A stretch of DNA of 64,000 nucleotides from an uncultured Gammaproteobacteria bacterium (GCA_964392925.1 CAYMRP010000004.1:71184-135183); one strand, 5' to 3'. Positions 11,418 through 64,000 are shown, counted from the stretch's first letter. The notes: generated from the sequence alone by a model not told the origin. Translations and numbers: made by a program.

Positions 11418-12503
11418 ATGAGAATCCACTGGTTTTTTAAAGTTACAGGTTTTTTTGCGGCGATTTTTATAATCTGGCTGCTGTTTTATTATGCTCTCCC
11501 GGAAATATTACCTGCGCAAAGAGTCGAGTCATCAGAAGTCTATGGACTAATCTTCTCTGATCAAATTTGGGGAGGAAATATTAAAATTGTTGGAGATGTT
11601 TATACTCTCACAAATAGTAAGGTAACGATTCTTCCGGGAACTAAAATAAAAGTTGCCATTAATAGTGATAAATCAAATATGGATCTTCTTCCTTGGCATA
11701 GAAAGGAAGGAGTTAACACCGGAGATTTTTATAAAGGTGTTAAAACTGGTGAGCCTTTCTGGAATGAAAGCCGGAAAATTCAAATCCATCTCAATACAGT
11801 CGAAATGATTGGAGAGCCCAGCAATACTATCGAAATAACCTCAGAATCAGAAGACCCTAGTCCATATGACTATAATATTTTAAGTATAAGATCAGGTAAG
11901 ATTACGCACGCTTTATTTTCTAACTACCGCCGTTTTGAAACTAATGGCGATTTAGAAGTAATGAACTCTACCTTTCGTAATACAGGTGAATGCGCACTCT
12001 GTATAACTGGTGGAACACCCAGAGTCTACAACAATACTTTTGAAAATAGCTTACGTGAGTCAATTTGGATTAAAAAAGCCAGCCCCATAATCGATAATAA
12101 TTTATTCATTAACCTAACCGGAGATGGAATAAAAATAGATCCTCAAAAAATTGCCGCACCTCATATCGTAAATAATGTTTTTGAAATGCCTCAACGAGGA
12201 GCAATTGATATAATAGCAGGAAGTCAACTTGGGGAAATATTAATTGCCAGAAATATTTTCTCCGGAAATTCGCAGATTAAAATCGCTTGTGATGCACAAG
12301 TCAAAATAAGAGATAATGCTATCTTTGGGCTGATTAGTTTTACCAATGGTTGTACTGGTGGATTCACCTTTGGGTCCAATTTTTGGGGAACTATTGACCC
12401 GCGAATTATCCTCAGTGAAAAAATTCTCAGTAAATATGAAAGATTCCGCATTGAAATACCTAACGTTCTATTTATGGCTCCTAAAGGAGCGGGGAGGAAA
12501 TAG
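11418..12503 (+). CDS. Right-handed beta-helix repeat protein (pectate-lyase fold), membrane-anchored
   Basis: N-terminal TM helix. Repeated NNxF/DNNLF/RDNAIF motifs typical of parallel beta-helix repeats. Confidence 0.5.
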   Translation: MRIHWFFKVTGFFAAIFIIWLLFYYALPEILPAQRVESSEVYGLIFSDQIWGGNIKIVGDVYTLTNSKVTILPGTKIKVAINSDKSNMDLLPWHRKEGVNTGDFYKGVKTGEPFWNESRKIQIHLNTVEMIGEPSNTIEITSESEDPSPYDYNILSIRSGKITHALFSNYRRFETNGDLEVMNSTFRNTGECALCITGGTPRVYNNTFENSLRESIWIKKASPIIDNNLFINLTGDGIKIDPQKIAAPHIVNNVFEMPQRGAIDIIAGSQLGEILIARNIFSGNSQIKIACDAQVKIRDNAIFGLISFTNGCTGGFTFGSNFWGTIDPRIILSEKILSKYERFRIEIPNVLFMAPKGAGRK

Positions 12504-51849: not shown

Positions 51850-53358
51850 TTAATTTACCGGTAAGCTTGATGAAGTGCCTGCCGAAGCAGCTGGACTGCC
51901 GCTAGGTGTTGGTGAAGCTTTTTGCTGAGCAGCTCTCATCGCCGGGCTAAGCGATGCTGCTGGACTTGAAGCAGGGTCTGGTGATCCGCCTACTGTAGGT
52001 GCTGGTAATGCAGTGTCTGTTGTTGGTTCCATGACTGGAACTGGAGATGGGGCAACTATTTGTGCCGGAGGATTAGTTAATGGAGCTTGTGTCTGTTGTG
52101 TTTCTTCAACAGGTAAAGAAGTTTCATCTGTAGGTGTTGGATTAGCTTGCCCCACTCCTAATATTAAATAAGCACTTAAAGCTGCAACTATCAGGATAAT
52201 TGGAATACCCGCAACTAAAAGTACTTTTGTTAAATTTAAATGCTTACCAGGAGGTGGAGCATCGCCTTCTGCTGATTGTGGTGTTGCAGAAGCCGGAGCC
52301 ATATTCAAGTTCTGATCAGCTGCAACTGGTGGGGTATAAACTCCATTCGTCTGCGAAGGTGCTGTCTCGTCACCTGCAATTAAATGCGATAAATCAGTTG
52401 GGGCATTCTCAACAGGTCCCATGTCCGGAAGAGGGGAGGCTGTAGGTGCGGCTGCAGCCTGATCAGGTTGTATTGGTGCTTGCATAGCAGCTGGATCTGC
52501 AGGCGGAGTAGTTGTAGCCCCGAGTCCCGATTGAAGTCCTGATAAATCCATCGATCCGGGTTGCGGCTGTGAGGACATAGTTTGATCCTGAATTTGGGCA
52601 GTTTCTTGTGGTGGGTTTCCAGGCTGGACATTTAGATCAATAGTAGGTGTCGCCATTGGGTCAGACATCGAAGCTGCTACTGGCGCTGCGGTTGGCGCTG
52701 AGAACTGTGACTCTGCCGGAGCCGGTTGATCCCAAGGATTAACAGTTGGTGCAGCAGGCTGAGTAGGATCACTAGGTAGCGCCGTAGCTCCTTCAAACGG
52801 ACTCTGCGGAGGAGTCGGAGTGAATGCTGTATTCAAAGGATCAGGTGGAGTAGTTGTCTGAGCACCGTATGGTGCGGCTGGTTGTTCAGGCAAAGGCGTA
52901 GGTGCTGCAGGCTGTTCAAAGGGAGGTGATGTATTAAAAGTCCCTGCTTGAGGCTGTAAAAAAGGATTAGCGGCTGCCGGATTTTCACTTGGCACTGCTG
53001 GTTCTGGAGGTGCCATCGGAGCTGTTGGTACATCTGTCGGAACAGTCGCTTGTGGGGTAGGCGGCCACGCCGCTCCTGAACTTGCGGTCGGTGTACTTGG
53101 CAATGGTGAAGAAAATCCAGGTTCTGGTGCAACAGTTTCAACCGGTACCGGGCTCCAAGGATTAGGAGCAGCTGTTGGGTTTGATTGGGCTGGATCTGAC
53201 ACAGGCATACTGGAAGAAAGGGGAGCTGATGTTGCCGATTGGTCAGGACTGCTGGACCATCCTGGAGTTTGTTGTGGAGGGGTTAATGGATCAACAGGGG
53301 CTGCGCCAAAAGGTAAACTAGGATTGTTATTTGGATTATTAGGGTCATTACTATCCAT
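51850..53358 (-). CDS. Pro/Ala/Thr-rich low-complexity protein with a single central TM helix
   Basis: A 502-aa ORF on the minus strand in an AT-rich genome. TM helix KVLLVAGIPIILIVAALSAYLILGV. The rest is P/A/T/Q-rich. Confidence 0.45.
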   Translation of the reverse strand: MDSNDPNNPNNNPSLPFGAAPVDPLTPPQQTPGWSSSPDQSATSAPLSSSMPVSDPAQSNPTAAPNPWSPVPVETVAPEPGFSSPLPSTPTASSGAAWPPTPQATVPTDVPTAPMAPPEPAVPSENPAAANPFLQPQAGTFNTSPPFEQPAAPTPLPEQPAAPYGAQTTTPPDPLNTAFTPTPPQSPFEGATALPSDPTQPAAPTVNPWDQPAPAESQFSAPTAAPVAASMSDPMATPTIDLNVQPGNPPQETAQIQDQTMSSQPQPGSMDLSGLQSGLGATTTPPADPAAMQAPIQPDQAAAAPTASPLPDMGPVENAPTDLSHLIAGDETAPSQTNGVYTPPVAADQNLNMAPASATPQSAEGDAPPPGKHLNLTKVLLVAGIPIILIVAALSAYLILGVGQANPTPTDETSLPVEETQQTQAPLTNPPAQIVAPSPVPVMEPTTDTALPAPTVGGSPDPASSPAASLSPAMRAAQQKASPTPSGSPAASAGTSSSLPVN

Positions 53359-53490
53359 GGCAGTTACTCTATAAGTTTATGCGAAGATAGCCTTAATAAT
53401 CAAGTAGTCGCATAAATTACGGTAGTGCTTTTTGCTCATTTCAGGTATAATCCCTCACACAGGGGAATTCCCAAAGTAAGAGTCAGTAAT

Positions 53491-56292
53491 ATGCTTAATT
53501 TTTTTTCTTCATTAATCGATGCCAATAAACGGGAAATTAATCGCCTCTCAAAAATCGTTGAAACCATTAATAGTTATGAAGCTAAAATCAAAAAGTTTGA
53601 CGATAAAAAGTTTAAAGAAAAAGCTCTAGATCTACGTAAAAGACATGAAAAAGGTGAAACCTTAGAGTCTCTTTTACCTGAAGCTTTTGCTTTCGCCCGC
53701 GAAGCCGCTAGCCGCAGCCTAGGCATGCGTCACTATGATGTTCAGCTAATGGCAGCCATCGCTTTGCACAGCGGTAAGATCGCCGAACAACGAACCGGTG
53801 AAGGAAAAACTATGTCTGGTGTTCCGGCCATTTTTCTAAATGCTCTTTCCGGTAAAGGTGTCCATGTAGTTACGGTAAATGATTATTTAGCTCGCCGCGA
53901 TGCAGGTTGGAATGGACCTATCTTTCATACTCTAGGTGTTTCAGTCTCAGTTATTATTCATGAAAAGGCTTTTCTTTTTGATCCAAAATATAAAGATCCA
54001 GACACAACAGATAAACGGCTTAAGAATTTAAGACCAGTCACTCGCAAAGAAGCTTATGCTGCTGATATAACTTACGGCACTAATAATGAGTTTGGTTTTG
54101 ATTATCTAAGGGACAACATGGCCAACAGCTTGGATAATATGGTTCAGCGAGGTCACAATTTCGCCATCGTTGATGAAGTAGATTCAATTTTAATTGACGA
54201 GGCCCGTACTCCATTAATTATTTCAGCCCCCGATACTGAGCCCACAGGTAAATATATTGAGTTCACCAAAATCGTCAGTCAGCTTGATGGTAAAACAGAT
54301 TATGTAGTTAACGAAAAAGAACGTGCAGCCCACATGACAGAGGAAGGTATTCTTCATATCGAAAAAATTATGGGTGTCGATAATCTTTATGAAAAAGATT
54401 TTTCTGCTCTTCACCATATAGAAGAAGCCTTAAAAGCCAGAACCCTTTTTCTTAAAGACCGCGACTATGTTGTTAAAGATGGCGAAGTAATTATTGTTGA
54501 TGAATTCACTGGCCGTTTAATGCCGGGCCGCCGTTACTCCGGAGGTCTACATCAATCAATCGAAGCCAAAGAAGGCGTTAAAATCCAACAAGAGTCAAAA
54601 ACTTTAGCCACAATTTCTTTCCAGAATTACTTCAGAATGTATAAAAAGCTTTCTGGTATGACTGGAACTGCAGCCACCGAAGCAGAAGAATTCTTTAAAA
54701 TCTATAAGCTGGAAGTAGTTATTATCCCAACTCATCAACCTATGATCAGAAAAGATAATCCTGATGCTATCTTTAAAACCCAAACCGGTAAATTGATGGC
54801 CGTCGCCTCAGAAGTTGAAAAAATTCATGCATCTGGCCAGCCTGTTTTAGTAGGTACAACTTCGATTGATAAAAACGAATTCTTATCTGAACTCTTAAAG
54901 AAAAAGCGGATCTCCCACGCACTTTTAAATGCTAAAAACCACGAACGCGAGGCCGAAATTATTGCTGATGCCGGTCAAAAAGGTTCAGTAACTGTAGCCA
55001 CTAACTTAGCCGGTCGTGGTGTCGATATTAAGCTTGGTAAAAATGTTGAAAAATTAGGCGGACTTTATGTTATCGGTACCGAACGTCACGAATCAAGGAG
55101 AATCGATAATCAATTAAGAGGCCGCTCAGGTCGTCAGGGTGACCCGGGTGCTTCCAAATTCTTTGTTTCTCTTGAAGATGATTTAATGAGAATCTTTGGC
55201 GGCGAGCAAGTCGCAAGAGTCATGGGCTTTTTAAAAATGCCGGAAGATACTCCTATCGAAAACGGTATGGTTTCCAAAGCAATTGAAGGCGCACAGAAAA
55301 AAGTTGAAGGTCATAATTTTGATATCCGTAAACATACAGTTGAATACGACGACGTTATGAATCAGCAGCGCCAGATTATTTATGGTGTCAGAAGGAATGT
55401 CCTGGATGTCTTAGCTGGAAAATCCAAAGATGGTAAATCTCTTAAGGATGAAATCATCGAAAAAATCGGCATTGAAGTCGAAGCCATCATTGATGACTAT
55501 GCGATTGAAGGGGAGATAGAATATGAAAAAATTATCGAAGATTTCTCAACCATAATTAATTTTGATCAAGCCAGCCGTAAACAGCTATTAGGCCAAATCT
55601 CAGATATCAAAGATGAAGCTAAATTAAAAGAATTTTTAGTCCGTCTCGCCGAAGATCTCTACGGTGAAAAAGAAAAAACCGTCGGTGCCGATCTGATGCG
55701 CCAAATGGAAAGCTTTGTTTACTTAAACACAATTGATACTTTTTGGATGGAACATCTCGATACAATGGATGATCTTCGCTCAGGTATCGGATTGCGCGGA
55801 TATGCCCAAAGAGATCCTCTAATCGAATATAAAAAAGAAGGCTTTGAGTTATTCGAAAAAATGATTGCTGAAATTGATTCAGAAATTGCCAGACGTATCT
55901 ATAAAGTCTCAATGCATAATCATGGGCCAGTCCAGGTTGTTTCTCCAATCGATATGTCAAAAGCCGTCGCAACCCACGATGAGGCGCTCGATGAAAAAAC
56001 CTTACTTGAAGAAGTCGGCCAGCTTATGCCGTCAGTTCCTGAAGTTCGCCACAGCGGAACCAAAATCAAAGTTGAAGGCTCAAGTAATGATGAGGCATAC
56101 TCTCAGACTCCGACTGTAGTCGAAGAACCAGTTGCTGCCGGCACCCGAGTTACTGTTGAAAGAGCCGGTCAGGTTGTCTCACAAGATGTCTATAACGATA
56201 CAGGTTCGCTCCAAAGGAAAAAGCCTGGCAGAAATGACCCCTGCCACTGCGGTTCAGGCAAAAAATATAAAAAATGCCATTATCCTAATTAG
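53491..56292 (+). CDS. secA: Preprotein translocase ATPase SecA
   Basis: MLNFFSSLIDANKREI start. DEAD-like motor motifs (GEGKT, DEVDSILIDEARTPLIIS). C-terminal zinc finger CHCGSGKKYKKCH. Confidence 0.9.
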   Translation: MLNFFSSLIDANKREINRLSKIVETINSYEAKIKKFDDKKFKEKALDLRKRHEKGETLESLLPEAFAFAREAASRSLGMRHYDVQLMAAIALHSGKIAEQRTGEGKTMSGVPAIFLNALSGKGVHVVTVNDYLARRDAGWNGPIFHTLGVSVSVIIHEKAFLFDPKYKDPDTTDKRLKNLRPVTRKEAYAADITYGTNNEFGFDYLRDNMANSLDNMVQRGHNFAIVDEVDSILIDEARTPLIISAPDTEPTGKYIEFTKIVSQLDGKTDYVVNEKERAAHMTEEGILHIEKIMGVDNLYEKDFSALHHIEEALKARTLFLKDRDYVVKDGEVIIVDEFTGRLMPGRRYSGGLHQSIEAKEGVKIQQESKTLATISFQNYFRMYKKLSGMTGTAATEAEEFFKIYKLEVVIIPTHQPMIRKDNPDAIFKTQTGKLMAVASEVEKIHASGQPVLVGTTSIDKNEFLSELLKKKRISHALLNAKNHEREAEIIADAGQKGSVTVATNLAGRGVDIKLGKNVEKLGGLYVIGTERHESRRIDNQLRGRSGRQGDPGASKFFVSLEDDLMRIFGGEQVARVMGFLKMPEDTPIENGMVSKAIEGAQKKVEGHNFDIRKHTVEYDDVMNQQRQIIYGVRRNVLDVLAGKSKDGKSLKDEIIEKIGIEVEAIIDDYAIEGEIEYEKIIEDFSTIINFDQASRKQLLGQISDIKDEAKLKEFLVRLAEDLYGEKEKTVGADLMRQMESFVYLNTIDTFWMEHLDTMDDLRSGIGLRGYAQRDPLIEYKKEGFELFEKMIAEIDSEIARRIYKVSMHNHGPVQVVSPIDMSKAVATHDEALDEKTLLEEVGQLMPSVPEVRHSGTKIKVEGSSNDEAYSQTPTVVEEPVAAGTRVTVERAGQVVSQDVYNDTGSLQRKKPGRNDPCHCGSGKKYKKCHYPN

Positions 56293-56300
56293 GTTTTTCT

Positions 56301-56723
56301 ATGATAAAAACAGCCAGCGAAATAGTTGACCAACTTAGAACCGAAGGTCACCGTATCACCCCGATTAGAAATCGGATTCTCGATATTCTCTCCAAGAGCA
56401 CAGAGCCTATTTCGGCATTAGATTTAATAGCAGACTTTAAATCCTCAAATCTTAACGTTAACAAAACCACCATCTACCGGGAAATAGAATTTTTATTAGG
56501 CAAAAATCTTATTAATGAAGTTGAATTTGGAGATGGCAAAAAAAGATACGAGATGGATAATGGGCATCACCATCACTTAGTTTGCTTAAAGTGTGGCAAA
56601 GTTGAAGATGTTAGTTTGGAGACGGATTTATCATCGGAAGAAAAAAAGATAGAAAAAGAAACAGGTTTTAAAGTTGAATCTCATTCATTAGAATTTTTTG
56701 GAATTTGTAAAACCTGCCAATAG
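56301..56723 (+). CDS. Fur-family metal-responsive transcriptional regulator (Fur/Zur/PerR)
   Basis: Winged-helix N-terminus. HHHHLVCLKCGKV...CKTCQ metal sites. 140 aa. Confidence 0.75.
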   Translation: MIKTASEIVDQLRTEGHRITPIRNRILDILSKSTEPISALDLIADFKSSNLNVNKTTIYREIEFLLGKNLINEVEFGDGKKRYEMDNGHHHHLVCLKCGKVEDVSLETDLSSEEKKIEKETGFKVESHSLEFFGICKTCQ

Positions 56724-56808
56724 AACTTTACTAAAGGTAAGTTGTTTACTAACAGCGATTTTCGTGCTAACTTAATCAAGTCAAATTCAAAACGAAAGGG
56801 GGTGTTTT

Positions 56809-57291
56809 ATGGAAGAACAAGTAAATACACAAGGCAGTTTGCCGAAGTTTGTAATGCCCACTGTTGTTGCAGCTCTAATAGTGTTCGCAGTTATCGGTTA
56901 TTATTTTTATAATTCCGGCTCAAATAACTCGTCTCAGCCAGCATCCACTATGGAAGGCCAAGGTTCTCCTGCAGCGGTTTCAGAAAGTAATTCGAATTAT
57001 AAAAATGGTACTTACACCATTAACGGGGAATACGTTAGCCCAGGAGGGCCCAGAGAAATTGGGGTAACTTTAACTTTGACTGATGGTTTAGTAACCGCAG
57101 CAGAGAGTCAGGTGCTCGCCGAGGATGCCACCTCTAAAAGATTCCAAACCGAGTTCGTTGAAGGTTTTAAACCAATGGTTATTGGTAAAAGTCTAAACGA
57201 AGTCGTTCTATCAAAAGTTTCGGGCTCATCTTTAACTCCTAAAGGATTTAATGATGCTGTCGAAAAGATTAAAGTTGAGGCTCAGTCTTAA
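56809..57291 (+). CDS. Membrane-anchored FMN-binding domain protein (NqrC/RnfG-like)
   Basis: N-terminal TM helix. GTYTINGEYVSPGGPREIGVTLTLTDGLVTAAE resembles FMN_bind domains. A candidate flavinylation site sits at the C-terminus (VSGSSLT, compare S/TGAT). Confidence 0.5.
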   Translation: MEEQVNTQGSLPKFVMPTVVAALIVFAVIGYYFYNSGSNNSSQPASTMEGQGSPAAVSESNSNYKNGTYTINGEYVSPGGPREIGVTLTLTDGLVTAAESQVLAEDATSKRFQTEFVEGFKPMVIGKSLNEVVLSKVSGSSLTPKGFNDAVEKIKVEAQS

Positions 57292-58170
57292 ATGATTTGG
57301 GATCAAAAGTTTAATTTTGAAGAAATAGGAACCTCATGGACTATTGAATATTCAGGAGTCTCAAAACTTTCACCTGAATTACTTATAGAAAAGATCCGCG
57401 CAGAAATTAATAAATTCTCGCGGGTTTTTTCTAGGTTTGACAAAAATTCAGCGGTTTTTAAATCAAGTAAAACCGCATCTGAGATTATTATTCCGGAAGC
57501 TTATTTACCGCTTCTAGCTATCTATAAATCTTTATATAAATTAACTGACGGTTTATTCACTCCTCTTGTTGGAAATTTACTTTCTGAATCAGGCTACGAC
57601 GAAGATTATTCTCTGGTTCAAAAAAAATTAAATCCTGTTCCGCAGTGGGACCAAGTTATTGAGATTTCCGGAGAAACAATTAAATTTAAAAAGCCCTGGC
57701 TTCTAGATTTTGGCGCGGCCGGCAAAGGATTTATTGTTGATCTGATAGGGGAGTTGCTGGAAGATCAAAATATTAAGTCCTATTGTATAGATGCCGGCGG
57801 AGACATTCGCTATAAATCTGATAACAATGAAAAACTAAAAATCGGCCTTGAGCACCCCGATAATTTAGATCAGGTTCTTGGAGTTGCAGATCTAGAAACA
57901 GGTAGTATTTGCGGCTCATCTGGAAATCGCCGCAAATGGGCAAATCTTCACCATATTTTCAACCCTAAAAAACTTGATTCTGTTAGAGAAGTCCTGGCAG
58001 TTTGGGTAATTTCAGATACTACTTTAATAGCAGATGCTCTCTCGACAGCTTTATTCTTTGTAAACCCGGAAAAGCTTTTAGGAGATTTTAAGTTTCAATT
58101 TCTAATAATTTACCCGGATTTCACTTTTAAAAAATCCCCAAACTTCCCCGGTGAAGTATATGTGGCATGA
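57292..58170 (+). CDS. apbE: FAD:protein FMN transferase (ApbE family)
   Basis: GAAGKGFIVD and IDAGGDI, compare the ApbE GxxAKGYAVD and NLGGD motifs. About 290 aa. Confidence 0.7.
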   Translation: MIWDQKFNFEEIGTSWTIEYSGVSKLSPELLIEKIRAEINKFSRVFSRFDKNSAVFKSSKTASEIIIPEAYLPLLAIYKSLYKLTDGLFTPLVGNLLSESGYDEDYSLVQKKLNPVPQWDQVIEISGETIKFKKPWLLDFGAAGKGFIVDLIGELLEDQNIKSYCIDAGGDIRYKSDNNEKLKIGLEHPDNLDQVLGVADLETGSICGSSGNRRKWANLHHIFNPKKLDSVREVLAVWVISDTTLIADALSTALFFVNPEKLLGDFKFQFLIIYPDFTFKKSPNFPGEVYVA

Positions 58171-58197
58171 GATGTCCAAGTCGGGTAAACTAGAATA

Positions 58198-59718
58198 ATG
58201 TACTTACTTAATAAAATTGATTCTCTTCTAAATTCAATCACCATGTACCGGCTGGTGCTATATGTATTACTAGTCCAATCCGCATTCGCAATAATTCTAG
58301 GTTTTCTAAATCTCCTACCTTATTCCGGAATCCAATTCACACTGACGCTTCTAGTTTTAGTCATAGTTAGTTATATATCCAATTTAATTTTTGCCTGGAC
58401 CGTCAAAGCCGTAGTTAACGTAGAGTCCTGGTTAATAACTGCCTTGATTCTTTTTTTAGTCCTGGCCCCGATAAATAATTTTCAGGATTTTATAGTCACC
58501 ACTGTTATCGCGATAGTGGCTATGGCTTCCAAATACTTTTTAACTTATGACAAAAGACATATCTTTAATCCGGCCGCTTTAGCTATGTTTCTAGCTAGCC
58601 TTTTCGGTTTCGGAAATTCTATTTGGTGGATTGGAAGTTCAATTATGCTGCCTGTCGTTTTAGTAACCGGCTTATTAATTGTTAGAAAAATTAGGAGATT
58701 TAGGTTAGTGATTATGTTCCTTGTCACAGCTGTCCTAACAGTCAGTGTCTTTAATTATTTAAATGGTATTCCTCTTACCCAAGCCTTAATCCAAGTTTTT
58801 ACATCTTGGCCTTTAATCTTTTTTGCAACGATTATGTTAACAGAGCCATTCACAACTCCTCCCAACAGAGAGTTCCGAAATTACTACGGAGTTTTTACTG
58901 GAGCATTATTTGGCTCTCAATTCTCAATCGGTCCTCTTTACGCTTCTCCAGAGCTCGCCCTAGTTGCCGGTAATTTTGTGTCATTTCTTTTAAGTCCTAA
59001 GGGTAAATTAATCCTTAAGTTTAAACAAAGAAACCAACTCGCTCCAACAATTTTCGAATTTATTTTTTCTCACAATGGGAAATATAATTTTACTCCTGGC
59101 GAATATTTAGAATGGACCCTGCCTCACCCAAATTCAGATTCAAGAGGTGTCAGAAGATATTTCACTATTGCCTCCTCCCCAGAAGAACCAGATTTAAAAC
59201 TTGGGGTTAAAATTATTCCTGATAAATCAAGTAGTTTTAAAAAAGCTCTCTTGGCTTTACAGCCCGGCAGTACACTTGCCGCCGACCAACTCTCGGGTGA
59301 TTTTGTCCTGCCTAAAAATCCCTCTCAAAAATTAGTTTTTATTGCTGGAGGAATCGGGGTAACTCCGTTTCGCAGTATGATTAATAGTCTAATTGTTAGT
59401 GGCGCAAAAAAGGACATAGTCCTTTTTTATAGCGCCGCAGATCCAAAAGAATTCGTCTATAAAGATATTTTCACTCAAGCAGAATCTTCCGGACTTAAAA
59501 CAGTTTATGTTTTTGGCGGTAAAGAAGTACCGCCTGATTGGCAAGGGGAGACAGGATTTCTAAATGAAGCAATGCTCAGAAAATATGTCCCTGATCTGAA
59601 AGAACGGAAATTCTATATGTCAGGTCCTGTCGCGATGGTTAACAATTATAAAGGCCTTCTGAAAACCCTAGGCATCTCCAACTCATCAATCGTTACCGAC
59701 TACTTCCCCGGCTTCTAG
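58198..59718 (+). CDS. Fusion of an NqrB/RnfD-like polytopic membrane domain to a ferredoxin-NADP reductase-like FAD/NAD(P)H-binding domain
   Basis: N-terminal 6-8 TM helices with RHIFNPAALAMFLASLF (compare NqrB RNFLNPALAGRAFLFF). C-terminal RRYFTIASSP (RxYS FAD site) and FIAGGIGVTPF (GGxGxxP NAD(P)H site). Confidence 0.55.
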   Translation: MYLLNKIDSLLNSITMYRLVLYVLLVQSAFAIILGFLNLLPYSGIQFTLTLLVLVIVSYISNLIFAWTVKAVVNVESWLITALILFLVLAPINNFQDFIVTTVIAIVAMASKYFLTYDKRHIFNPAALAMFLASLFGFGNSIWWIGSSIMLPVVLVTGLLIVRKIRRFRLVIMFLVTAVLTVSVFNYLNGIPLTQALIQVFTSWPLIFFATIMLTEPFTTPPNREFRNYYGVFTGALFGSQFSIGPLYASPELALVAGNFVSFLLSPKGKLILKFKQRNQLAPTIFEFIFSHNGKYNFTPGEYLEWTLPHPNSDSRGVRRYFTIASSPEEPDLKLGVKIIPDKSSSFKKALLALQPGSTLAADQLSGDFVLPKNPSQKLVFIAGGIGVTPFRSMINSLIVSGAKKDIVLFYSAADPKEFVYKDIFTQAESSGLKTVYVFGGKEVPPDWQGETGFLNEAMLRKYVPDLKERKFYMSGPVAMVNNYKGLLKTLGISNSSIVTDYFPGF

Positions 59719-59867
59719 TTATATTACGTTTCGAACGCAGTGAGAAAAACATGCTCTTCATATTTTTCGAGCATAGCGAGAAAATACTTTACTGTGTTTC
59801 GCTAACAAGTTAGAATATTGACAAACGCCACAAAGTTGCATATACTTAATGCCACAAGGTTGCAATT

Positions 59868-60857
59868 ATGGAAAGAAGAGAAGCCTCTAACGAACTAAAT
59901 AAATCACTAAACTCTGTTGGCTTAAGACTTGAAGGTGCCCCAAAAGTTATAATCCCTAAAACGCTTAGTGCTGAAATTCTGGCAGCAAAAGCCATCGCTA
60001 TGTCAGAAGACATGCAATATGGTTTTGATTTAGCAAATATAGTCACAGATCTCAGGCAATCTGCAATCAGAACCCTAAAAGACGGAAAGTCCTTTCCATT
60101 AGTACTGGATATACCAAACCTCGCAGATCCGAATTATGAACCTACTCCAGCTGATATTGCGCCTTCTTTGCTCGCCGCAAGTCTTGGAAGTTTTGCAATT
60201 GTCAGGATTGCTATGCCAAACTCAGATCACAGTATATCGCAGCTTTACGGAACAACTACACCCAGAACAAACATTGATGAGGGGGAACTGCAATTTACTT
60301 ACATCGGATTAAGAGTCTCGAGTAAGAGCGGTTATAAATGGGAGTCCCCCGCGCAAATAGATCCTTTAAGACCAGACCTGGTCTCTCCGGCCGATATGGA
60401 AACTTATTTATCAGGTGCAAATCAACTCGGCCTAGTTGGTGATCACGATAACTCAGGAATAAAAGTTTCAGATCCAAGACACTTAATAAATCTCCTCCAC
60501 GGCCTAGCAAATCCTGGACTTAGCGGACATTGGGCAGATGCACTTGAAAGTAATGGTCAAAGAAAACTTTTGACCGAAACATCAGCAAAAAGAATAATTG
60601 CCCCTAACGAGTTTGGCGACAGCTTGTATCAAGACCCCCTAAACACGACCCCTGTATTCACAATAGGTGCAGAGAGAATTCCCATGGCCATAGTTCTGGC
60701 CCCTGAACTTATGGAAGATATAGATTCTCTTGAAACCAGACGCAGTAATAAACCGGGAAGTCTTGAAACTTTGCAAGGAATGGCGCTCGCTGCACGTTTC
60801 GCGCAGAGATTAGGGGATAGCTTAGATCGGGCAATACCTAAAAGCGGAATGATTTAA
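59868..60857 (+). CDS. Hypothetical protein
   Basis: 329-aa ORF with no recognisable motif. Confidence 0.3.
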   Translation: MERREASNELNKSLNSVGLRLEGAPKVIIPKTLSAEILAAKAIAMSEDMQYGFDLANIVTDLRQSAIRTLKDGKSFPLVLDIPNLADPNYEPTPADIAPSLLAASLGSFAIVRIAMPNSDHSISQLYGTTTPRTNIDEGELQFTYIGLRVSSKSGYKWESPAQIDPLRPDLVSPADMETYLSGANQLGLVGDHDNSGIKVSDPRHLINLLHGLANPGLSGHWADALESNGQRKLLTETSAKRIIAPNEFGDSLYQDPLNTTPVFTIGAERIPMAIVLAPELMEDIDSLETRRSNKPGSLETLQGMALAARFAQRLGDSLDRAIPKSGMI

Positions 60858-60859
60858 CT

Positions 60860-61396
60860 ATGCTAGAGACAGCATCACCTAAAAAATTATTTGGAAAGAA
60901 AAAAATAGAATCTCAGGATATATCAACTCATTCTTTGGGAAACCCAATTCTAATAACAGAAACTCTCGACATTTTTAACCAAAGCCTGAGTGCCGAGATT
61001 ATAAAACAGGACCAGCAAATTACAGAGGTCCTTAAAAAAACATCAGATAACTTTATTAACTTCACAGGTCCTAAAGTTTTAGATTGGAATAAAAGTACTG
61101 GAAGAATAGCATTAGCAGAAAGTGTCATCAAAAATTCCGAAACCGAGTTTTTAGCATTCCGGCAAAGAATGACCGCTATGGCAGATGCTGATGGTTGCGG
61201 TGGTAAAAATGAAATTGCAAAATCTTCAGAGTCTGCTCTTTCTTCAAATGCGAATGTTATAGATTTTGGACAGGCGAAATTAAACAAAGCCTTAGGGATA
61301 AATAATAAACATACTCATAAATCAGGGGAACACGATCATTGTTCTCACGGCAATGATTACGGAGAATGCCCTAGCGGTTGTAAAAAAGCAGCCTAA
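60860..61396 (+). CDS. Hypothetical protein with a Cys/His-rich metal-binding-like C-terminus
   Basis: HTHKSGEHDHCSHGNDYGECPSGCKK tail. Confidence 0.3.
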   Translation: MLETASPKKLFGKKKIESQDISTHSLGNPILITETLDIFNQSLSAEIIKQDQQITEVLKKTSDNFINFTGPKVLDWNKSTGRIALAESVIKNSETEFLAFRQRMTAMADADGCGGKNEIAKSSESALSSNANVIDFGQAKLNKALGINNKHTHKSGEHDHCSHGNDYGECPSGCKKAA

Positions 61397-61417
61397 ACTC
61401 TAAAATTAGCTGACTAA

Positions 61418-62497
61418 ATGAAAAAAATCCTAGCAGTACTTCTCCTTTTTCTTGCGTTACAAATATCTCCTGCTTTAGCTCAGGAAAACTTAGATCAGAC
61501 CATAAATTCCTCTGGGTATTCAACCCCGACCGATGAAATAAAACTTGAAGGTGTAGTTTTAGAAGATGGAAAAAAAGTCGAAGTGACCTCTCCTAACCGG
61601 CAGGGCGAAATTCTAAATACTGAGCAATCTTTTAATGCCCCTAATTCTCCGAGTTTTAAAAATGGTGATAAAGTAAAAGTTTCAATCTTTACGAATCCTG
61701 ATAACTCTCAGCAAATTTTCATTACTGATTTTATTAGAACCAGCCCGCTTTATTGGCTGTTCGGGTTATTTGTTTTGCTTGTTTTAATAATAGGAAAAAA
61801 ATCAGGACTCGGCTCGCTCGTCGGTATGGCTATATCTTTTGCAGTTCTATTCCTTTTTATTGTTCCCCAAATAACCGCCGGTCAAAATCCAATCTGGACT
61901 ACTTTAATTGGAGTATTATTTATTCTTCCTATAACTTTTTATCTATCCCACGGCATCAATAAAAAAACTACTATTGCTCTTGTTTCAACTTTTCTTTCTG
62001 TTTGTTTTACCAGTCTATTATCAATCTTCTTTATTAATACCGCCAAAATTTCCGGCTATGCTAGTGAACAGGCCGGCTTTATTCAAACTGCCAGAAGCGG
62101 AAGCTTCGATATTCAGGGATTATTATTTGCCGGAATTGTAATAAGCATAATTGGTATTCTGGATGATGTCACTATTTCTCAGGCCTCCATTGTTAATCAA
62201 CTGAAGATCGAACTACCAAAAGCTAAAGTGCTAGAGCTTTATAAAAAAGCTATGAATATTGGTCGCGATCATATTGGCTCTGTTGTAAATACGTTAATTC
62301 TTGTTTATGCCGGCGCATCCCTGCCGCTTTTAGTTTTATTCACAGACAGCAGTATTGGTTTTAACGAAGCGCTCAACAATGAAATAGTCGCCGAAGAAAT
62401 AGTAAAAACTCTGGTTGCCAGCATCGGACTTGTTCTATCAATTCCTTTGACCACAATTCTGGCTGCTTATTTTCTCAGTAATGACAAAGAAGCTTAA
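61418..62497 (+). CDS. YibE/F-like polytopic membrane protein with an N-terminal extracytoplasmic domain
   Basis: Signal peptide, ~100-aa soluble domain, then 6-7 TM helices. The architecture matches the YibE/F family. Confidence 0.4.
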   Translation: MKKILAVLLLFLALQISPALAQENLDQTINSSGYSTPTDEIKLEGVVLEDGKKVEVTSPNRQGEILNTEQSFNAPNSPSFKNGDKVKVSIFTNPDNSQQIFITDFIRTSPLYWLFGLFVLLVLIIGKKSGLGSLVGMAISFAVLFLFIVPQITAGQNPIWTTLIGVLFILPITFYLSHGINKKTTIALVSTFLSVCFTSLLSIFFINTAKISGYASEQAGFIQTARSGSFDIQGLLFAGIVISIIGILDDVTISQASIVNQLKIELPKAKVLELYKKAMNIGRDHIGSVVNTLILVYAGASLPLLVLFTDSSIGFNEALNNEIVAEEIVKTLVASIGLVLSIPLTTILAAYFLSNDKEA

Positions 62498-62862
62498 GAA
62501 TTAATAATTGCTCTTGTCGCTTCAACATCCCTGGCCATTTGTGCAGTCAAATCTTTCTTATCAGGAAAATTCATAACTGGTCTTAAAAATTTAATAACTT
62601 CAACTTCGAATTCACGGGAATTCGGAATATCCGATTCCTTCGTATCAATTAAAAAGAACTCCAATGTTTTATCATCTTCTAAGAAAACCGGAATCGGCCC
62701 GTAATGCATTGCACCAATAAATTCTTTGTCTTCAATAAAAACTTTAACTGCATAAATTCCGTCATCTAAAATTAAGTCTGTTGGGATTTCTAAATTGATT
62801 GTTGGGAACCCTAAGATCTTCCCCCGGCCCTTCCCTTTAACTTGTGTGCTCTTAAACCTCAT
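62494..62862 (-). CDS. Riboflavin kinase (monofunctional flavokinase domain)
   Basis: GKGRGKILGFPTINL, then GIYAVKV and a PIPVFLED..LEFFLID pattern, matching the RibF C-terminal flavokinase domain. Confidence 0.6.
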   Translation of the reverse strand: MRFKSTQVKGKGRGKILGFPTINLEIPTDLILDDGIYAVKVFIEDKEFIGAMHYGPIPVFLEDDKTLEFFLIDTKESDIPNSREFEVEVIKFLRPVMNFPDKKDLTAQMARDVEATRAIINS

Positions 62863-63784
62863 GCTTTAATTGTAGTGAAGATAATCTCCAAATACTAAAC
62901 ATCAAAACCGCAGCTGCCAATAATTGAGTTGGAGCCAAGAATGTTTTATACAAAACTGCATCAATAATAATAGTTAACACCGGAAACACTAATTCCAAAA
63001 TAGTCGCCACCCTAACTGGAGTCTGTTTAAGACCTTTGTAATAGATAAGCAGTGCCACCATACCAGTCGATAAAGCAATAAATCCAAATTTTAGAAACTG
63101 CGAAAAATCTGGTGTAAACAATTGCGGCATCGCCCCTAGAAAAATAATAAATGGAATAGCCAAAATTGTTGTAAAAATAAATCGTAGTCCGGTAACTGTA
63201 TTAGAGTCATACTTTGTTAAAGCCATTTTAGAGAATGTTGTCGAAGTTCCCCAAGCAAACGCTGCTCCTAACGCAAATAAAGCTGCAGTTGCAGTTCCGC
63301 TGCCAGTCCCAAAATTAACCACCCCACCAGGGAAAGTGACAAAGTATGCAGCCGCAAATGCTAGGAGTGCCCAAGGTAAATAACTCTTTTTAATCGGTTC
63401 TTTAAGAAAAATTATCGCCGAGGAAATTGCAAAAATCGGCTGTAGTTTTTGGAGTAAAAATACGACAGAGAAAGGGATGAAGTTAACTTGCAAAAGTGCA
63501 GTTGTAAACCAAAGTGTACCTAATACACCGCTAAGCAACCCAATCACAATTAAAAGTAAAAATTCTTTCCGGGTTAAACGGACAGTAATTAATTTTTTCC
63601 AGATAAATGGAATTAAAATTAATAGTCCTATTAGATGCTCATAAAATACAATAATAATCGGCGGTAAAGAATAAAGGCTCCGTCTAACAACTCCGTCCAA
63701 AGCCCAAAGCACTGCTGCCGTAATAATTAATACTGGCCCTACTTTTAAAATATGTTTAATGAAGTGATTCATATAGATCCCCAC
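62852..63784 (-). CDS. DMT-superfamily transporter (EamA-like, 10 TM helices)
   Basis: Two EamA-like 5-TM repeats; 310 aa. Confidence 0.6.
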   Translation of the reverse strand: MGIYMNHFIKHILKVGPVLIITAAVLWALDGVVRRSLYSLPPIIIVFYEHLIGLLILIPFIWKKLITVRLTRKEFLLLIVIGLLSGVLGTLWFTTALLQVNFIPFSVVFLLQKLQPIFAISSAIIFLKEPIKKSYLPWALLAFAAAYFVTFPGGVVNFGTGSGTATAALFALGAAFAWGTSTTFSKMALTKYDSNTVTGLRFIFTTILAIPFIIFLGAMPQLFTPDFSQFLKFGFIALSTGMVALLIYYKGLKQTPVRVATILELVFPVLTIIIDAVLYKTFLAPTQLLAAAVLMFSIWRLSSLQLKHEV

Positions 63785-63846
63785 ATCGCTCCGCTCCTCA
63801 GGATGACAAATTGAATTTTAAATTTTATTCCATTTGTCAATTTTCC

Positions 63847-63880
63847 AAAAAAAATCCCCGACAAAATCGGGGGTAAATTT
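63847..63880 (-). terminator. Rho-independent terminator for a minus-strand gene lying beyond the window end
   Basis: On the minus strand: ccccga-ttttg-tcgggg followed by 8 U. On the plus strand it reads aaaaaaaatccccgacaaaatcggggg. Confidence 0.5.
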
Positions 63881-64000
63881 TGCACATCAAATGCGCAGCC
63901 TTCTTTCACTCCACTTGCGCCTAATGGCTTGGTGGAGTGTTCCGCACAGCTTTATTAAAAGCGACGTGGAACATCCGGACTATACCGTCGACTTTGGAAT

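Follow-up and report, generated by a model that had tools for sequence, protein, structure and literature searches.

A probable NQR/RNF-like electron-transfer operon with an atypical candidate flavin acceptor site and an ApbE without an export signal

We analyzed a 64,000-nucleotide (nt) stretch of bacterial DNA (CAYMRP010000004.1:71184-135183), hereafter the window, and in particular three adjacent genes that encode an NqrC/RnfG-like protein of 160 amino acids, an ApbE-family flavin transferase, and a 506-amino-acid fusion of an RnfD/NqrB-like membrane domain to an FNR-type reductase. We think that these genes (56809-59718) probably form an "NQR/RNF-like" flavinylation-associated electron-transfer system that works by the mechanism proposed for such systems. 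NQR/RNF-like systems were defined in 2021 as flavinylation gene clusters that contain a fusion of PF03116 to PF00175, and they were reported from 127 genomes, mainly of Actinobacteria and the Candidate Phyla Radiation (CPR) (Méheust et al., eLife 2021, PMC8238504). The operon is a new instance of this described system and not a new kind of system, although an earlier reading of the DNA, made from the sequence alone, had taken the three-gene architecture to be uncharacterized. What the window adds is a noncanonical acceptor motif, an ApbE that lacks an export signal across the family, and an adjacent riboswitch-controlled operon that looks like a flavin uptake operon.

The mechanism would run as follows. 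NAD(P)H would be oxidized in the cytoplasm by the flavin adenine dinucleotide (FAD) of the C-terminal FNR module, as the fold and motifs of this module suggest. Electrons would then cross the membrane by way of one or more noncovalent flavin sites, which we predict for the RnfD/NqrB-fold domain; this domain has lost the loop that carries a covalent flavin mononucleotide (FMN) in its relatives. On the outer face, they would reach an FMN that is predicted to be phosphoester-linked to Ser141 of the anchored NqrC/RnfG-like subunit. The co-encoded ApbE, whose family and catalytic motifs are clear, would install this FMN from FAD; its target is suggested by covariation and synteny. The outer FMN may reduce an extracellular acceptor, and our leading guess is ferric iron for assimilation, because a Fur-family gene is adjacent in this lineage and VIT1 genes are present in some clusters elsewhere. 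Electron flow would be one-way, not the semicircle of Nqr and Rnf, and the flavin is probably supplied by a riboswitch-controlled operon for an EamA-family transporter and a riboflavin kinase. The sequence-only reading had proposed much the same arrangement (a cytoplasmic FNR module connected directly to an RnfD-like core, and a partner protein that ApbE flavinylates), which coincides with the published model (PMC8238504, PMC11334425). Specifically, unidirectional electron transfer from NAD(P)H to extracytosolic acceptors was proposed when these systems were defined, and six of the clusters contained VIT1 iron transporters (PMC8238504).

CPR bacteria have almost no recognizable respiratory machinery. 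A two-subunit path that carries electrons from NAD(P)H to the surface of the cell and requires neither heme nor quinone could let some of them reoxidize NAD(P)H or reduce iron. The family is widespread and has been described so far from genome surveys and AlphaFold models; the compact three-gene operon is a convenient target for expression.

The fusion protein and the conserved gene cluster

All four of the genes that had been proposed for 56301-59718 are consecutive plus-strand open reading frames (ORFs), and they encode proteins of 140, 160, 292, and 506 amino acids. The first encodes the Fur-family regulator. The TAA of the second gene directly abuts the ATG of the ApbE gene (the junction is TAAATG), and the gap between the end of the ApbE gene and the start of the fusion gene is 27 nt, so we consider these three genes to be one tightly coupled unit. 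The definition of NQR/RNF-like systems asks for an ApbE gene, an FMN_bind gene, or both within five genes of the fusion; here, the fusion gene is preceded directly by the ApbE gene and, before that, by the FMN_bind-like gene. As to the domains assigned from the sequence, Pfam matches were found for FUR, ApbE, NAD_binding_1, and NQR2_RnfD_RnfE, but there was no match to FAD_binding_6 in the fusion or to FMN_bind in the 160-amino-acid protein.

NAD_binding_1 covers amino acids 381-484 of the fusion (E = 5e-16), and NQR2_RnfD_RnfE covers amino acids 140-238 with a borderline score (28.0 bits, compared to a cutoff of 27.7). Because NCBIfam alignments to NqrF, flavohemoprotein, and flavin reductases begin at amino acids 275-296, we take the FNR module to span approximately amino acids 272-506. 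It contains R319-R-Y-F-T and G384-G-I-G-V-T-P and ends with DYFPGF. Across an alignment of 33 homologs of the fusion (50-78% identity), R-x-Y-[ST], G-G-I-G-x-T-P, and the aromatic C terminus DYFPGF are invariant, and conservation runs the full length of the protein. The fusion thus has the hallmarks of FNR-like flavoenzymes, which are an FAD-binding barrel and an NAD(P)-binding Rossmann fold with the motifs RxY[ST] and GxGxxP. The module lacks the Fe-S partner domain that NqrF has. Pfam did not identify a ferric-reductase transmembrane domain (PF01794) in the fusion either.

The AlphaFold2 model of the fusion is confident (predicted local distance difference test [pLDDT] of 86 and predicted template-modeling score of 0.74), and its membrane domain superposes on RnfD/NqrB. 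A profile of the N-terminal domain matched only RnfD in the PDB (E = 0.006), across the TEPxTxP/TDPVTSP region. The loop that bears the covalently flavinylated threonine of RnfD and NqrB is shortened in the fusion to FGFGNSIWWIGSS (amino acids 136-148 of a loop at 136-150) and has no conserved [ST]GA[ST]. Within this loop, just G146 and S147 are about 90% conserved among the 33 homologs, while position 148 may be S, A, G, L, E, D, T, or P. Loss of the NqrB/RnfD flavinylation site was also reported for a Ktedonobacter complex that was modeled by AlphaFold-multimer, and the partner's covalent FMN was proposed to sample the membrane subunit's flavin pocket (Huang et al., mSystems 2024, PMC11334425). 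We considered whether the fusion might have a second flavinylation site: amino acids 145-148 (IGSS) resemble the motif, but position 148 is not conserved, so we rejected this candidate. Loops that are rich in lysine and arginine (amino acids 112-121, 163-169, 224-227, and 268-277) alternate with uncharged loops, and on this basis we predict that, as in NqrB and RnfD, the vestigial flavin loop faces outward and that the FNR module lies in the cytoplasm.

We compared the window to related loci (L001, L083, L084, and L003-L040). The scan used one genome per species and found about 38 loci in which the fusion is complete or nearly so. These come from CPR (Saccharibacteria, Amesbacteria, Peribacteria, Nomurabacteria, Daviesbacteria, and Adlerbacteria), Ktedonospora (Chloroflexota), Alphaproteobacteria, and Actinobacteria. 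About 29 of the 35 loci that could be assessed, from four phyla, encode FMN_bind, ApbE, and the fusion in this order, and the genes are tightly packed, with start and stop codons that abut or overlap. The trio co-occurs across CPR genomes, where the sequence-only reading had proposed to look for it, and also beyond them. The three features on which the sequence-only reading was staked (an RnfD match in the fusion, a conserved serine site in the partner, and synteny in relatives) are all present. More broadly, the fusion's N-terminal domain alone matches 1,364 representatives of 50%-identity clusters at E ≤ 1e-3, or 368 at E ≤ 1e-30. Most of the representatives are about 500 amino acids long, so we take most of them to be fusions. 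This suggests a family far larger than the 127 clusters that were first reported.

The window's operon has the same architecture as the described NQR/RNF-like systems, the same loss of the flavinylated threonine, and the same proposed one-way function from NAD(P)H to the outside. It differs in that its partner subunit has S-G-S-S instead of S-G-A-T and is too divergent for Pfam to detect as FMN_bind, and in that a Fur gene and a riboswitch-controlled operon for putative riboflavin uptake and riboflavin kinase flank the operon in this lineage. Na+-NQR (NqrA-F) and Rnf (RnfA-G) share the NqrB/RnfD fold, the NqrF-like FAD/NADH module, the NqrC/RnfG-like subunit with covalent FMN, and ApbE-dependent flavinylation. 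However, these complexes have six subunits and the window's system has two; it lacks the Fe-S core of NqrD/E (RnfA/E), NqrA/RnfC, and Fe-S domains of the ferredoxin type. Also, the window's RnfD-like domain itself appears from its sequence to be unflavinylated, and its electron path is predicted to be one-way rather than semicircular.

Two other kinds of systems are similar in outline. First, MsrQ-like/NOX-type and PepSY-like PF00175 fusions also join an FNR-type NAD(P)H module in the cytoplasm to a membrane electron conduit. These reductases are often clustered with genes for ApbE and FMN_bind proteins and have been linked to iron reduction, but their conduits are bis-heme helical bundles, whereas the window's has the RnfD/NqrB fold and is presumably flavin based. 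Second, in the flavin-based extracellular electron transfer of Listeria (Ndh2, EetA/B, FmnB, and PplA), a transferase of the ApbE type attaches FMN to an FMN_bind protein, tethered to the membrane, which passes electrons to extracellular acceptors, and both systems are linked to dedicated flavin acquisition. The Listeria system relies on the quinone pool, on a lipoprotein (FmnB) outside the cell, and on FAD export mediated by an energy-coupling factor (ECF) transporter. In contrast, the window's fusion is predicted to oxidize NAD(P)H directly, and its ApbE has no export signal.

The partner subunit and its acceptor site

The 160-amino-acid protein consists of an N-terminal transmembrane helix (amino acids ~14-36), a low-complexity linker rich in serine, asparagine, and proline, and a divergent FMN_bind domain of about 95 residues (amino acids ~64-160). 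Its identification as an FMN_bind protein receives no support from its own Pfam results (no match to PF04205 at E ≤ 1), and a profile of 31 of its homologs did not find any FMN_bind chain in the PDB, just noise from transmembrane helices. However, 16 of these 31 homologs match PF04205 (best E = 8e-6), and the protein is predicted to have an RnfG/NqrC-like fold. Its AlphaFold2 model has a pLDDT of 81, or above 90 in the globular part, and the best matches from Foldseek are RnfG (8rb8_G and 8ahx_G), FMN domains (8p2a and 8p2b), and NqrC (3lwx and 4u9s). The probabilities of these matches are 0.96-0.98, but their E values are weak (~0.02). The N-terminal helix is hydrophobic (mean Kyte-Doolittle score of 2.25), which is consistent with a signal anchor.

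The partner domain has an invariant C-terminal motif, K-V-[S/A]-G-S-S-L-[T/S]-P-x-G-F, and G139, S140, and S141 are invariant in all 31 homologs. The candidate flavinylation site is S135-K-V-S-G-S-S141, with S141 as the putative flavinylated residue. Thus, the [S/T]GA[S/T] motif that the sequence-only reading proposed to check for is not present in this form. The canonical motif for ApbE is D-x-x-[S/T]-G-A-[S/T] (PMC12052999), of which the window's site retains the glycine and a hydroxyl acceptor. Judging from its sequence, S141 is plausible as the acceptor because mutant sites tolerate such changes to a degree: altering the aspartate has a minor effect, changing the alanine to valine roughly halves flavinylation, and serine is a poorer acceptor than threonine (reviewed in PMC12052999).

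The link between ApbE and the partner is strengthened by how they vary together. There are two types of partners. The GSS type is found in the window, in Microgenomates, in some Saccharibacteria, and in Actinobacteria, while the other clade carries the canonical D-[IM]-[IV]-S-G-A-T. ApbE proteins from GSS-type loci are similar to the window's ApbE with E values of 1e-37 to 1e-79, compared to 1e-4 to 1e-13 for those from SGAT-type loci. Similarly, across L003-L040, ApbE proteins of ~290 amino acids are paired with [S/A]-G-S-S sites and those of ~250 amino acids are paired with D-x-x-S-G-A-T. As far as sequences can tell, this is the pattern expected of an enzyme and its dedicated substrate. The pairing is independent of the similarity of the fusions, which suggests either exchange of modules or coevolution of enzyme and substrate. 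Within the window, we found no second ApbE, no second FMN_bind gene, and no other D-x-x-[ST]-G-[AS]-[ST] motif.

The location of ApbE and alternative arrangements

The window's transferase clearly belongs to the ApbE family (PF02424, E = 2e-41, 142.6 bits compared to a cutoff of 25.6). It aligns to the structures of ApbE from E. coli, Thermotoga, and Vibrio, and both H-x-x-x-P (as LHHIFNP) and ADALST are conserved. Amino acid 11 aligns to residue 22 of the crystallized construct of E. coli ApbE, and 10 residues precede the first conserved strand.

Several observations weigh against the mechanism that we favor. The window's ApbE has no signal peptide, lipobox, or transmembrane segment, and neither do those of about 30 related loci from four phyla, where the in-frame upstream stop codon is too close for a signal peptide to fit. 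This conflicts with a substrate domain that is modeled as extracytoplasmic, and FAD would also be needed outside. The ApbE proteins that are known to act outside the cytoplasm are lipoproteins, and cytoplasmic ones serve cytoplasmic targets (PMC12052999). As for the partner, S-K-V-S-G-S-S differs from the canonical motif at three positions (D to S, A to S, and T to S), and its positive-inside bias is weak in the window's clade, with an average of ~2.0 lysines or arginines on the N-terminal side of the helix (counting the N terminus itself) and 0.7 on the C-terminal side. Five loci with full-length fusions (L009, L010, L013, L017, and L022) lack both ApbE and FMN_bind within 6 kb. Regarding iron, no Fur, PerR, or Zur operator rises above background, and the best match in 56700-56815 is 10/19. 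Finally, our search of the literature found no experimental or biochemical characterization of any member of the NQR/RNF-like family.

The missing export signal is not discussed in PMC8238504 or PMC11334425. It may have gone unnoticed in the published surveys because the pipeline that identified the clusters asked for just one signal peptide among a cluster's target genes (PMC8238504). The sequence-only reading also overlooked it. We considered whether ApbE might be exported by read-through from the partner gene. A single TAA separates the two ORFs in the window, and they share a frame, but in L001, which is 94% identical, the junction is TAATG and the frames differ, so we rejected this idea. 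We also rejected export of a preflavinylated domain by the twin-arginine (Tat) system, as no partner has a twin-arginine motif in its N terminus. The options that remain are that the partner is flavinylated before it is translocated, that export takes an unconventional route, or that the FMN domain is cytoplasmic. Tentatively, and with more doubt than confidence, we suggest that ApbE is cytoplasmic throughout the family: the FMN_bind subunit would be flavinylated before translocation, or else its FMN domain would be on the cytoplasmic face, contrary to the published model, and the enzyme and its substrate in the window's clade would have coevolved towards S-G-S-S. Either outcome would alter views of ApbE-dependent flavinylation and of FAD supply in these minimal cells.

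The second of these outcomes implies a different electron path. If the partner were oriented N-out/C-in and flavinylated by a cytoplasmic ApbE, then electrons might pass from NAD(P)H to FAD, to the covalent FMN, and to the flavin or quinone site(s) of the RnfD-like domain, and then outward or to a membrane quinone, with the partner acting like the FMN domain of a diflavin reductase. This would explain why no ApbE of the family has an export signal, and intracellular flavinylation would spare the cell from exporting FAD; in Klebsiella, cytoplasmic ApbE proteins are documented to act on FMN_bind domains that are themselves cytoplasmic (PMC12052999). The lack of an Fe-S partner domain in the FNR module and the weak charge bias of the partner's anchor point the same way. 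However, in the published high-confidence AlphaFold-multimer model, the partner's flavinylation site docks at the flavin pocket that the RnfD-like domain has on its outer face (PMC11334425). Furthermore, SGAT-type partners begin with MKKK, MKR, or MRK and a hydrophobic stretch, much like signal anchors, and have long linkers of proline, alanine, and serine that are typical of extracytoplasmic stalks, and both NqrC and RnfG are N-in/C-out. To our knowledge, CPR bacteria generally lack quinones, which also counts against this path. Overall, we think that the cytoplasmic arrangement is unlikely.

The sequence-only reading had also raised the possibility of an ion-pumping mini-Rnf. Such a two-subunit complex would couple the passage of electrons through the RnfD/NqrB-like domain to translocation of Na+ or H+ and would thereby conserve or consume ion-motive force. 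Structures of Nqr implicate NqrB in Na+ conduction. We found no evidence to support ion pumping here. By ORF calling and Pfam, the operon contains no homologs of RnfA/E (NqrD/E), RnfB, RnfC, or NqrA and no Fe-S subunits; no ion site is identifiable from the sequence; the outward export of electrons is by itself depolarizing, not energy conserving; and the published analysis favors a single unidirectional electron path (PMC8238504). This makes ion pumping quite improbable. Least credible of all is that the genes are mere neighbors, with ApbE serving another flavoprotein and the fusion acting alone as an NAD(P)H:flavin or ferric reductase: the five fusion loci without ApbE and FMN_bind nearby and the prediction of ApbE in a different compartment than the partner's FMN domain would fit, but the same tightly coupled order recurs in ~29 of 35 loci from four phyla, ApbE and its partner covary in type, and the 64-kb window has no other candidate motif for an ApbE substrate.

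Flavin supply, the Fur gene, and other neighbors

The genes near the three-gene operon, as identified by ORF calling and Pfam, encode SecA, Fur, two proteins without family matches, a YibE/F-like protein, riboflavin kinase, and an EamA-family transporter (see Table 1 for coordinates). The riboflavin kinase that had been noticed about 3 kb downstream is indeed monofunctional, with no FAD-synthetase domain according to Pfam. Its gene comes second, after EamA, in an operon on the minus strand, and the two genes overlap by 11 nt. The full order, on the minus strand at 62494-64000, is FMN riboswitch, terminator hairpin, EamA, riboflavin kinase, and the hairpin (63872-63856) is likely the expression platform of the riboswitch. 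The end of the window cuts the aptamer, but full FMN riboswitches lie at the same place upstream of EamA in L083 (8856-8974, 105.9 bits) and L084 (9757-9873, 102 bits), and L001 has one upstream of EamA at 11796-11912 (58.3 bits, E = 1.6e-12). In L083 and L084, the EamA/kinase operon is directly tail-to-tail with the fusion gene. Because it shares a riboswitch operon with riboflavin kinase, and because of this arrangement in L083 and L084, EamA is a candidate riboflavin importer, and the operon looks like a means of importing and trapping riboflavin beside a flavin-dependent module. No FMN adenylyltransferase was seen near the operon, though ApbE needs FAD.

Relative to L083 and L084, the window has three plus-strand genes inserted between the fusion gene and the flavin operon (59868-62497). 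They encode proteins of 329 and 178 amino acids without family matches and a YibE/F-like membrane protein. The 178-amino-acid protein has a C-terminal tail that is rich in histidine and cysteine, HTHKSGEHDHCSHGNDYGECPSGCKK. In L026, a distant locus from Saccharibacteria, the fusion gene likewise has a YibE/F gene directly beside it.

The Fur-family protein contains an HHHH motif and two CxxC pairs. Its best NCBIfam matches are to Fur of the Bacillus type (105.8 bits) and to PerR (82.5 bits), both far below the cutoffs; the protein may be of the Fur, Zur, or PerR type. The gene adjoins the operon in L001 (94% identity), L083 (77%), and L084 (65%), but not in relatives at 56% and 51% identity or in any distant locus. 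Upstream of fur itself, there is a 13/19 match to the Fur box, but this is unexceptional, as one strand of the window has 21 such matches. Since the linkage of Fur to the operon is confined to close relatives and no Fur box was found, the iron control that the sequence-only reading suggested is a lineage-specific hint and not a finding.

Between the Fur gene and the partner gene, an intergenic alignment shows TTTACT and TAACTT hexamers, with the same spacing, in the window, L001, L083, and L084, and we consider these to be a candidate promoter for the operon. No short inverted repeat was found in this region. At the other end, a strong promoter-like site (TTGACA-17-TATACT, 59818-59846) lies 3' of the fusion gene, and relatives differ in which genes follow the fusion, which suggests that the operon ends at 59718. 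A generic scan of the window for promoters and terminators did not exceed the expectation from shuffled sequence.

Table 1. Coordinates of the operon and of associated features in the window
Feature	Position	Strand	Basis or remarks
Fur-family metalloregulator	56301..56723	+	140 amino acids; Pfam FUR, E = 7e-28
Candidate operon promoter, TTTACT-17 nt-(TGc)TAACTT	56745..56773	+	Fur/FMN_bind intergenic region; prediction only
NqrC/RnfG-like subunit	56809..57291	+	160 amino acids; homologs, fold, and invariant motif
ApbE-family FAD:protein FMN transferase	57292..58170	+	292 amino acids; Pfam ApbE
Fusion (506 amino acids), whole gene	58198..59718	+	NQR2_RnfD_RnfE and NAD_binding_1
Fusion, RnfD/NqrB-fold polytopic membrane domain (amino acids 1-271)	58198..59010	+	
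Fusion, FNR-type FAD/NAD(P)H-binding module (amino acids ~272-506)	59011..59718	+	predicted cytoplasmic
Monofunctional riboflavin kinase	62494..62862	-	Pfam Flavokinase, E = 5.5e-26; outside the core operon, associated with the module
EamA-family (drug/metabolite transporter) protein, candidate riboflavin importer	62852..63784	-	Pfam EamA, E = 6e-35
Terminator-like hairpin and T-run, between the riboswitch aptamer and EamA	63856..63872	-	terminator scan and sequence
FMN riboswitch aptamer, 3' part (RF00050, model positions 97-138)	63959..64000	-	23.3 bits; cut by the end of the window

Directly upstream of the Fur gene is secA (53425-56292, plus strand), whose stop codon is 8 nt before the start of Fur. 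In this genome, the two genes may be cotranscribed; in L084, they are separated by others. Farther upstream, 51850-53358 (minus strand) encodes a low-complexity protein of 502 amino acids that is rich in proline, alanine, threonine, serine, and glutamine and has a single transmembrane segment near residue 385. This stretch is locally GC-rich (0.467, compared to ~0.39). The protein has no NCBIfam match, and L001 and L083 have a gene of about this size at the corresponding place. Just past what corresponds to the right end of the window, close relatives contain a gene for a bacterial type IB topoisomerase (Top1B_N_bact and Topoisom_I; 12009-13049 in L001 and 9748-10788 in L083).

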